Virus genome (UHGV): UHGV-0111899
Length of the DNA stretch: 23,450 nucleotides
Strand: one strand, 5' to 3'
Source of the DNA: a virus
In this document: positions 7,594 to 7,688 of the stretch, in pieces
How positions within the stretch are numbered: the stretch's first letter is position 1
Layout of the letters: every line of letters begins with the position of its first letter
Translations under genes and position numbers: made by a program
The notes under the pieces: generated by a model
What the model was told of the DNA's origin: nothing
What the model saw: only the letters and a program-made list of their open reading frames with translations
Databases searched by the model: none

Positions 7594-7618
7594 AAAAAAG
7601 CCCACAGGAGGTGGGCTT
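7594..7618 (-). terminator. intrinsic terminator tR' (ends a short 6S-like late leader RNA)
   Basis: Minus strand reads AAGCCCAC-CTCCT-GTGGGCTT followed by TTTTTT: an 8-bp GC-rich stem plus U-run about 40 nt downstream of the predicted pR' start. Confidence 0.7.
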
Positions 7619-7658
7619 GTGATGGTTGCTGAATGCAAAAGCAGCAGCATATGTGAAC

Positions 7659-7688
7659 ATTATGGCTAAATGGCTAATTGCATGTCAA
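7659..7688 (-). promoter_or_regulatory. late promoter pR' (-35 TTGACA, 18-nt spacer, -10 CATAAT); expected to overlap the Q-utilisation site
   Basis: Minus strand: TTGACA (plus 7683-7688), 18-nt spacer, CATAAT (plus 7659-7664), abutting the Q stop codon; arrangement is the standard lambdoid Q-pR'-tR' layout. Confidence 0.6.

Follow-up and report, generated by a model that had tools for sequence, protein, structure and literature searches.

The window analysed here is a stretch of 23,450 nucleotides of viral DNA (UHGV virus genome UHGV-0111899). Its late-regulation region, which extends from the antiterminator gene Q to the lysis genes, lies on the minus strand and contains the following features, given in the direction of that strand.

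7666-8184, minus: Q antiterminator gene, 172 aa, Q21 family, Sf6 subtype (PF06530, E=1.8e-25)
7688-7683, minus: -35 hexamer TTGACA of pR' (positions -36 to -31), aligned with the annotated phage 21 -35
7672-7679, minus: upstream Q-binding subsite (QBEu-like) AATTAGCC (-27 to -20), in the register of phage 21 QBEu ATTGAGCA
7664-7671, minus: downstream Q-binding subsite (QBEd-like) ATTTAGCC (-19 to -12), in the register of phage 21 QBEd AATGAGCA
7664-7659, minus: -10 hexamer CATAAT of pR', its first base also closes QBEd, in phage 21 as well as here
7652, minus: predicted transcription start A, by homology: the annotated phage 21 promoter likewise starts 7 nt past its -10
7645-7651, minus: sigma-dependent pause element (SDPE)-like TATGCTG (+2 to +8); phage 21 has its SDPE TAAGCTG at the same position
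7627-7649, minus: first predicted leader hairpin (+4 to +26), weakly supported, from the MFE fold
7594-7618, minus: proximal terminator tR', an 8-bp G+C-rich stem with a 5-nt loop, followed by a T6 run; the HK629 record lists it as a rho-independent terminator
7472-7593, minus: untranslated stretch (125 nt) upstream of the HNH gene, with the RBS AAGG 7 nt before the ATG
6959-7471, minus: HNH-AP2 endonuclease gene, 170 aa (PF13392, HNH_3, E=2e-18; PF00847, E=1.6e-8; phrog_99, E=2.8e-73)
6909-6953, minus: distal terminator, an intact phage 21 tR' hairpin with a T8 run (fold -17.4 kcal/mol, z = -5.2)
6830-6904, minus: tRNA-Asn (GTT), found by ARAGORN and Rfam, also in phage 21 and Sf6
6749-6824, minus: tRNA-Thr (TGT), found by ARAGORN and Rfam, also in phage 21 and Sf6
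6687-6747, minus: stretch common to phage 21 and lambda, the module junction
6183-6506, minus: holin gene S, lambda allele (106/107 identical to lambda S; PF05106)
5723-6199, minus: endolysin gene R, lambda allele except for the C-terminal ~20 residues (144/158 identical to lambda R)

The antiterminator and the lysis genes

Three families of Q antiterminators that share no sequence similarity are distinguished in the literature, namely Q21 (PF06530), Q-lambda (PF03589) and Q82 (PF06323). When the window Q was searched against the antiterminator families, PF06530 was its sole match; no match was obtained to PF03589, which is matched by lambda Q and by K-12 QuuQ (ydfT), and none to PF06323 at E<=0.01. 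The protein aligns with the Q of phage 21 (PDB 6jnx/6p18) at an E of about 1e-91 over residues 1-162, and its identity amounts to ~85% with Q21, 99% with the Sf6 Q (gene 59), 97% with the HK629 Q and 73% with the yong1 Q. The N-terminal ~100 residues are almost identical to those of Q21, whereas the C-terminal 60 residues, to which the DNA-binding helices belong, have diverged. The Q module starts exactly at the boundary between NinI and Q, the window being ~98% identical to phage 434 from 8182 onwards.

A preliminary description of this DNA had assigned the Q to a QuuD/82 family of non-lambda antiterminators. That it is not a lambda-type Q is borne out by the searches, whereas the link to phage 82 is contradicted by them, Q82 being unrelated in sequence. 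The QuuD label is correct in one respect, as QuuD of DLP12 also belongs to PF06530, but its similarity to the window Q is weak (merely 27% identity over 85 aa). K-12 QuuQ was considered as a stand-in for the 82 family and was rejected, since it is itself a lambda-family Q; it shows no similarity to the window Q. A Q system of the phage-82 or QuuD type with an 82-like short leader, for which the PF06530 membership of QuuD and the shortness of the leader could be quoted, is practically untenable in view of the ~85% identity to Q21, the absence of a PF06323 match and a promoter whose elements all align with those of phage 21 pR'. At the level of sequence, the attribution to phage 82 is refuted.

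At the other end of the region, S and R had been described as lambda alleles, which agrees with the identities given above. Homology to lambda (95%) runs from 6747, directly after tRNA-Thr, to 5787 inside R, and homology to phage 21 runs from 6953 to 6687, with 98.5% identity. The recombination junction that had been proposed between the late-regulation and lysis modules is correct as far as the mosaicism of the two modules is concerned, but its location has to be shifted ~850 bp further on, to the ~60-bp shared stretch 6747-6687. The same junction of 21-type and lambda-type DNA is present in Sf6. Likewise, the lysis genes that the Q unit was said to drive do lie downstream of it, but not directly, as the HNH gene, a second terminator and two tRNA genes intervene.

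The late promoter and its Q-binding repeats

The near-consensus promoter that had been noticed at the end of Q, TTGACA and CATAAT with a spacer of 18 nt, is present on the minus strand and matches the sigma-70 consensus at 11 of 12 positions. Its -35 hexamer is part of the Q reading frame, and the last 10 Q codons, by which this Q reaches further than that of phage 21, traverse the hexamer and enter the Q-binding repeats. The stop codon TAG (7668-7666) falls within the spacer, one base ahead of the -10, and is included in the QBEd-like subsite ATTTAGCC. This is the sole site with a match of at least 11/12 in the 23.4-kb window; such a match is found in 35% of Markov-1 random sequences, and the bare agreement with the consensus is not significant. 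What lends the promoter credibility is where it lies and that it is collinear, base by base, with the annotated pR' of phage 21.

The record of phage 21 (GenBank OL657228), which cites the structural papers and the mapping by Guo et al. 1991, annotates the -35, QBEu and QBEd, the -10, the SDPE and tR'. The repeats, the -10, the +1 and the pause element of the window are in register with these, and the -35 hexamer is the same. The differences are a spacer of 17 nt in phage 21 against 18 nt in the window, which has an extra base between the -35 and QBEu, the -10 hexamer (AACACT in phage 21, CATAAT in the window), and the discriminator with the start (ATTCGC-A in phage 21, GTTCAC-A in the window). 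By homology to phage 21, transcription is predicted to start at about A7652.

A different late promoter is annotated in the GenBank record of HK629, where a 'putative late promoter pR'' is placed 90-110 nt downstream of the terminator. Transferred to the window, this would mean that the hairpin at 7618-7594 ends the Q transcript and that the true late promoter is situated beyond it, shortly ahead of the HNH gene (about 7506-7501). A search of the minus strand between 7597 and 7472 found no sigma-70 promoter-like site, and the annotated hexamer reads TCTACG. Such a promoter would be devoid of Q-binding repeats and SDPE, the phage yong1 and the loci L164 and L167 carry the same leader and hairpin without that stretch after them, and it is TTGACA...CATAAT that is collinear with the mapped pR' of phage 21. 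The placement of the late promoter according to HK629 is, in consequence of these points, extremely improbable.

Between the -35 and the -10 of pR' lie two direct 8-bp Q-binding subsites. The C:G pairs at -21 and -13 are required for the action of Q21, and their substitution impairs Q21 antitermination; in the window, the C at -21 (QBEu-like) and the C at -13 (QBEd-like) are both kept. Both subsites differ from phage 21 at the same two of six core positions, with TTAGCC instead of TGAGCA. The second component of the loading site is the -10-like SDPE at +2 to +8. The motif TAnnnT occurs at a fixed distance after the -10 in 39/39 Q21-family loci examined, because of which the TATGCT of the window is a bona fide pause-element candidate.

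The repeats of the window differ from those that have been studied biochemically, and the case for Q binding rests on covariation between protein and site. Crystal and cryo-EM structures of Q21 exist (6JNX, 6P18), and residues 95 and 128 are among the base contacts listed by Shi et al. Compared with Q21, the window Q has the replacements H95R and R128N, alongside the change from TGAGCA to TTAGCC in the repeats. The pairing of residues and bases was followed in 36 species-representative Q21-family loci together with the window, phage 21, yong1 and Sf6, where the register of L184, L185, L187 and L195, which was off by 1 nt, was set right by eye. Asparagine at residue 128 is accompanied by T at subsite position 4 in 14/14 loci, and arginine by G in 23/24. 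At residue 95, arginine occurs with C at subsite position 8 in 19 loci, L176 being the one exception, and H, Y or L occurs with A in all 19 cases.

All four repeat cores, TGAGCA, TGAGCC, TTAGCC and TTAGCA, are found in the family. On a neighbour-joining tree, N128 is found at five or more separate positions; in Morganella, for instance, L200 and L201 (N128) stand among L198 and L202 (R128) at 85% identity. Judged by these pairings, protein and site travel together, either by point switches or by swaps of a module composed of the C-terminal domain and the promoter. There is good indirect evidence that the window Q would bind its own repeats, since residues 95 and 128 pair with repeat bases family-wide.

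Leader, terminators and the inserted HNH gene

A strong intrinsic terminator ~40 nt past the promoter and a leader of ~60 nt had been predicted, and the sequence agrees with both. The arms of the tR' stem, AAGCCCAC and GTGGGCTT, occupy 7618-7611 and 7605-7598, and the T6 run ends at 7594. The stem starts 40 nt after the -10, and the hairpin and U-tract extend over +35 to +59, which gives a leader length of 59-61 nt with the +1 at A7652. The leader folds at -21.5 kcal/mol (z = -3.2), and 0 of 200 shuffled sequences were as stable; in the first leader hairpin, one inner pair is broken in the L052 variant. Hairpins homologous to tR', with the same stem and differing loops, are present in yong1, L052, L164 and L171. 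As in the Q21 family, intrinsic terminators are located shortly downstream of the promoter and before the late genes (7618-7594, with the second at 6953-6909).

Such a short leader had been regarded as a trait of phage-82-type systems. It fits the pattern of phage 21 instead: compact leaders are normal for the Q21 family, with ~46 nt in phage 21 and ~60 nt in the window. In sequence, the window leader is unlike that of phage 21 or Sf6 from about +10, and its terminator hairpin differs as well, starting at +35 whereas that of phage 21 starts at +3.

A 60-codon open reading frame (7650-7468), which opens at +3, crosses the terminator and overlaps the HNH start by ATGA, was rejected as a gene: it has no Pfam or PHROG match, and the homologous leader of yong1 has a stop after 9 codons. 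A search of 6880-7760 against Rfam at a permissive threshold gave chance-level matches alone (Trp_leader, E=5).

The leader could have a function of its own. In Stx phages, the pR'-tR' transcript StxS binds Hfq and regulates rpoS and stx1, and its authors propose such leaders as a general source of small RNAs. Like StxS, the window leader would be a short, constitutive pR'-tR' transcript that accumulates in lysogens, and it ends in a stable hairpin with a U-tract. Unlike it, StxS is processed from a longer transcript and has demonstrated Hfq binding and targets. By this analogy, the ~60-nt leader may also act in trans as a small RNA in lysogens, a role that would be compatible with antitermination. 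The suggestion is unlikely to be right, given that an Rfam family match is absent, that the leaders of the family vary greatly after about +25, and that the SDPE and the pause region account for the conserved 5' part.

The leader is combined with different promoters in different phages. The same leader allele stands directly ahead of the lysis genes in the Hafnia phage yong1 (MT135176), where the first 25 nt are identical to those of the window, the terminator stem is the same and the next ~25 nt are similar; the repeats of yong1, in contrast, read TGAACA/TGAGCA, its Q has R128 and Y95, and it is without the HNH gene or a second terminator. L164 has the exact phage 21 promoter joined to a window-type leader, and L167 and L171 have Sf6-type repeats with a window-type leader. 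All four combinations of repeat type and leader type are found: the promoter and Q-binding modules of the Q21 family assort independently of its leader and terminator modules. This agrees with the biochemistry, according to which Q loading requires no more than the Q-binding repeats and a pause element at the right place. In vitro, pR'21 from -40 to -1 with the SDPE at its native position in an artificial C-less cassette yields Q21-loaded complexes, and because these parts are enough, a leader with another sequence after the SDPE would be expected to work.

These observations bear on the reading of the locus as a non-functional relic, in which the HNH segment and a foreign leader would have uncoupled Q from its loading site. 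It is true that the window comes from an uncharacterised prophage and that from the -10 on it differs from the majority allele of this Q subtype, the 21/Sf6-type leader (62/80 loci). The SDPE, however, is kept at its exact position, the sequence after it has been published to be dispensable for loading, the isolated phage HK629 has the same arrangement, and Q, HNH, S and R are all intact. A relic is very improbable on these grounds.

The 125-nt untranslated stretch that follows tR' is ~83% identical to a stretch before a different gene in Klebsiella phages and has no Rfam match between 7472 and 7593. A conserved RNA structure is not supported here (fold z = -1.6; RNAalifold covariation term -0.45), and three compensatory pairs all come from one divergent sequence. 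The HNH gene behind it is the first ORF of the predicted late transcript. Its product combines an HNH nuclease domain with an AP2 DNA-binding domain, as in homing endonucleases, and is probably a homing endonuclease of the free-standing type. Of 53 full-length copies examined, 51 have an intact ORF. The distal terminator begins six nt after the HNH stop codon and has the 21-type SDPE TAAGCTG in its 5' arm, without a promoter in front.

The distribution of this gene is patchy. The 80 IMG/VR loci that carry this subtype of Q divide into 62 with the 21/Sf6-type leader and without the HNH gene, 15 with the architecture of the window, two in which a window-type leader precedes a different HNH-AP2 gene (42% identical), and one that is truncated. 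In 5,426 complete E. coli genomes, the full arrangement was found in 39 and some part of it in 747; one prophage of the EPEC strain E2348/69 has the full arrangement. HK629 alone among deposited phages has the full HNH gene, and the PhiR12 phages retain the leader together with a 5' stub of the gene. The literature on HK629 and on HNH genes near Q in lambdoid phages yielded no description of this arrangement.

When HK629 is compared with L164, which represents the empty site, a clean 676-bp insertion becomes apparent, bounded by terminator T-tracts; it contains the HNH gene with the untranslated stretch before it and the 21-type terminator after it. The junction sequence in L167 is the same as in L164, with a less complete alignment. 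The gene is present or absent at one site (present in 15/80 IMG/VR loci and 39/747 matching E. coli genomes), a polymorphism that marks it as a mobile endonuclease gene and probably a homing one. An earlier idea, that an HNH cassette with its own leader and terminator was inserted right after the -10, was dropped because the same leader occurs without this HNH gene in yong1, L164, L167 and L171.

The late unit among lambdoid phages

The segment 7688-7594 (minus strand) is very probably the pR'-QBE-SDPE-tR' late unit of a lambda/434-like prophage with a Q21-family Q of the Sf6 subtype. From the sequence, we infer the pause, the binding of Q to the variant repeats, termination and read-through, and the 3' end. 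Sigma-70 RNA polymerase would initiate constitutively at about A7652, whereupon sigma region 2 would re-bind the -10-like TATGCT at +2 to +7 and the polymerase would pause near the promoter. Two Q protomers on the repeats AATTAGCC and ATTTAGCC (-27 to -12) would load onto the paused complex, and the loaded Q would form a nozzle on the RNA-exit channel that blocks terminator hairpins, as shown structurally for Q21. Without Q, transcription would stop at the hairpin and U-tract and release the ~60-nt leader RNA. With Q, it would read through tR', the HNH gene, the second terminator, tRNA-Asn and tRNA-Thr into S, R and Rz. The distal terminator of the phage 21 type would act as a second barrier to leaky transcription.

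The unit follows the same logic as pR', 6S RNA and tR' of lambda and occupies the same genome position, and S, most of R and the 241 nt upstream of S are lambda alleles. The lambda leader has a length of 194 nt. The lambda Q (PF03589) is unrelated in sequence to the Q of the window, and lambda, according to the literature, additionally needs a -35-like element. Phage 21 shares with the window the short leader and the tRNA-Asn and tRNA-Thr genes downstream; it has a pinholin and a SAR endolysin, whereas the window has the HNH gene between two terminators and lysis genes of the lambda type.

Also close is Sf6 (AF547987), in which Q is 99% identical, the promoter and repeats are identical, and the tRNA genes as well as lambda-like S, R and Rz are present. 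Its record describes the promoter as 'nearly identical to phage 21 late promoter' and also lists a qut site and tR'. In contrast to the window, the -10 of Sf6 leads straight into a 21-type leader and terminator, without the proximal yong1-type leader and without the HNH gene. Another relative is the isolated lambdoid phage HK629 (JQ182735), in which the promoter, leader, terminator, untranslated stretch, HNH gene and distal terminator are arranged as in the window, with 98-99% identity. Unlike the window, HK629 has other DNA in place of the two tRNA genes after its distal terminator, and one G of its QBEu is changed to T.

Elements of this kind are textbook knowledge: the record of Sf6 already has the promoter, that of HK629 the terminator, and both have a Q21-type Q together with lambda-type lysis genes. 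What is new here is minor and consists of the assignment of pR' in the HK629-type arrangement, the insertion of an HNH gene between tandem terminators, the assortment of modules and the rule that relates residues to bases. In the main, an annotation is settled: the late promoter of the window, of HK629 and of ~39 E. coli prophages is a phage-21-type pR' that overlaps the end of Q. In this arrangement, the late promoter is neither an 82-type unit nor the site annotated in HK629.

In addition to the annotation, the tracking of two repeat bases by residues 128 and 95 across 39 relatives provides a specificity rule, open to direct test, for an antiterminator of known structure. Two further proposals, put forward together and tentatively, are possible but somewhat doubtful as a pair: in the natural pairing of residues 95 and 128 with two repeat bases, Q21-family antiterminators would have a simple recognition code that can be re-programmed, and an active homing cassette, composed of the untranslated stretch, the HNH gene and the terminator of the 21 type, may have colonised the leaders of Q21-family late operons. 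If this is true, its position between two terminators would keep the cassette silent in a lysogen and make it the first of the late genes to be expressed under Q, and recombination through its flanks, with Q/pR' on one side and the terminator of phage 21 on the other, would enable it to convert the common leader of the Sf6/21 type.

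The late operon downstream of the proximal terminator

Downstream of the proximal terminator tR' (7594-7618), the late operon of the window carries two features, both on the minus strand:

6959-7593, minus strand: endonuclease gene (HNH_3 + AP2) preceded by an untranslated leader of 125 nt, lying between the proximal tR' and the second terminator
6909-6953, minus strand: phage 21 tR' hairpin with its T-run, present as an intact copy ~700 nt downstream of the promoter

Since the distal copy of the phage 21 tR' is intact, the late transcript would have two different terminators to pass. 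The 5' arm of the distal hairpin contains a 21-type sigma-dependent pause element (SDPE) sequence. By its position between the two terminators, the HNH-AP2 gene would be the late operon's first ORF. The gene is polymorphic for presence or absence, being found in 15 of 80 related IMG/VR loci and in 39 of 5,426 complete E. coli genomes, and the comparison of the related locus L164 with HK629 reveals a clean 676-bp insertion in the latter; a further locus, L167, shares the junction of L164.

L052 and L067 are two prophages that share the Q subtype (the Sf6 subtype of the Q21 family) and the proximal leader of the window. In both of them, a different HNH-AP2 gene, 42% identical, is located between tR' and the lambda S gene (3310-3819 in L052). 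HNH genes have filled this slot more than once. Another observation concerns L164 and L167, relatives without the tRNA-Asn/tRNA-Thr pair, in which a stretch about 100-330 nt past the leader ends in GGTTCGATTCCGGCC, which resembles the T-arm of some other tRNA gene.

The untranslated stretch preceding the HNH gene (7472-7593) has a counterpart of ~83% identity in Klebsiella-type phages, represented by Klebsiella phage Kp4856-1 (~1445-1590 in locus L089) and 36 IMG/VR loci. This counterpart also lies 3' of an intrinsic terminator, but the gene that follows differs from HNH and is a 190-aa ORF starting with MKYPTVSVNG. The shared homology takes in the ribosome-binding site and the start codon. 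A conserved RNA structure in this stretch is a weak candidate.

In the GenBank record of HK629, a "putative late promoter pR'" is put on the far side of the terminator, with the hexamer TCTACG (record 42745-42750, L001 3190-3195), which corresponds to window 7506-7501. The phage-21-like pR' that overlaps the Q 3' end is left unannotated in that record. The placement after the terminator is probably a mis-annotation.

Mosaic junctions and the early region

Lambda homology ends at 5787, within the 3' end of R (5723-5787 being non-lambda). The C-terminal ~20 residues of R, like the spanin genes (Rz/Rz1 region, about 5184-5740), are non-lambda alleles, which marks another mosaic junction. Across 8182-23450, the window is about 98% identical to phage 434, and a lambda/434-like early region fits with an Rfam match:

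17225-17283, plus strand: lambda cIII thermoregulator element, 88.5 bits

Q and its binding repeats

Inside Q, the window contains a sequence that fits the CII-binding pattern TTGYN6TTGY, at the position that the antisense promoter paQ has in the annotated phage 21 record:

7859-7872, plus strand: TTGCgtggctTTGC

The anti-Q promoter is probably conserved in the window.

The Q-binding repeats consist of two 8-bp subsites, an upstream (7672-7679) and a downstream one (7664-7671). A subset of relatives, HK629 and about 11 IMG/VR loci, has a G-to-T variant (AATTATCC) of the upstream subsite; for phage 21, this subsite is reported to have the lower affinity of the two.

Residues of Q were compared with subsite bases in 39 Q21-family loci, including the window (7664-7679) and loci L173-L207. 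In both subsites, the base at position 4 follows Q residue 128, G with R and T with N, and the base at position 8 follows residue 95, C with R and A with H, Y or L. Each of the four combinations is present, and the pairing has apparently switched independently several times. Together, the tracking, the four combinations and the several apparent switches point to a candidate recognition code between Q and its binding repeats.
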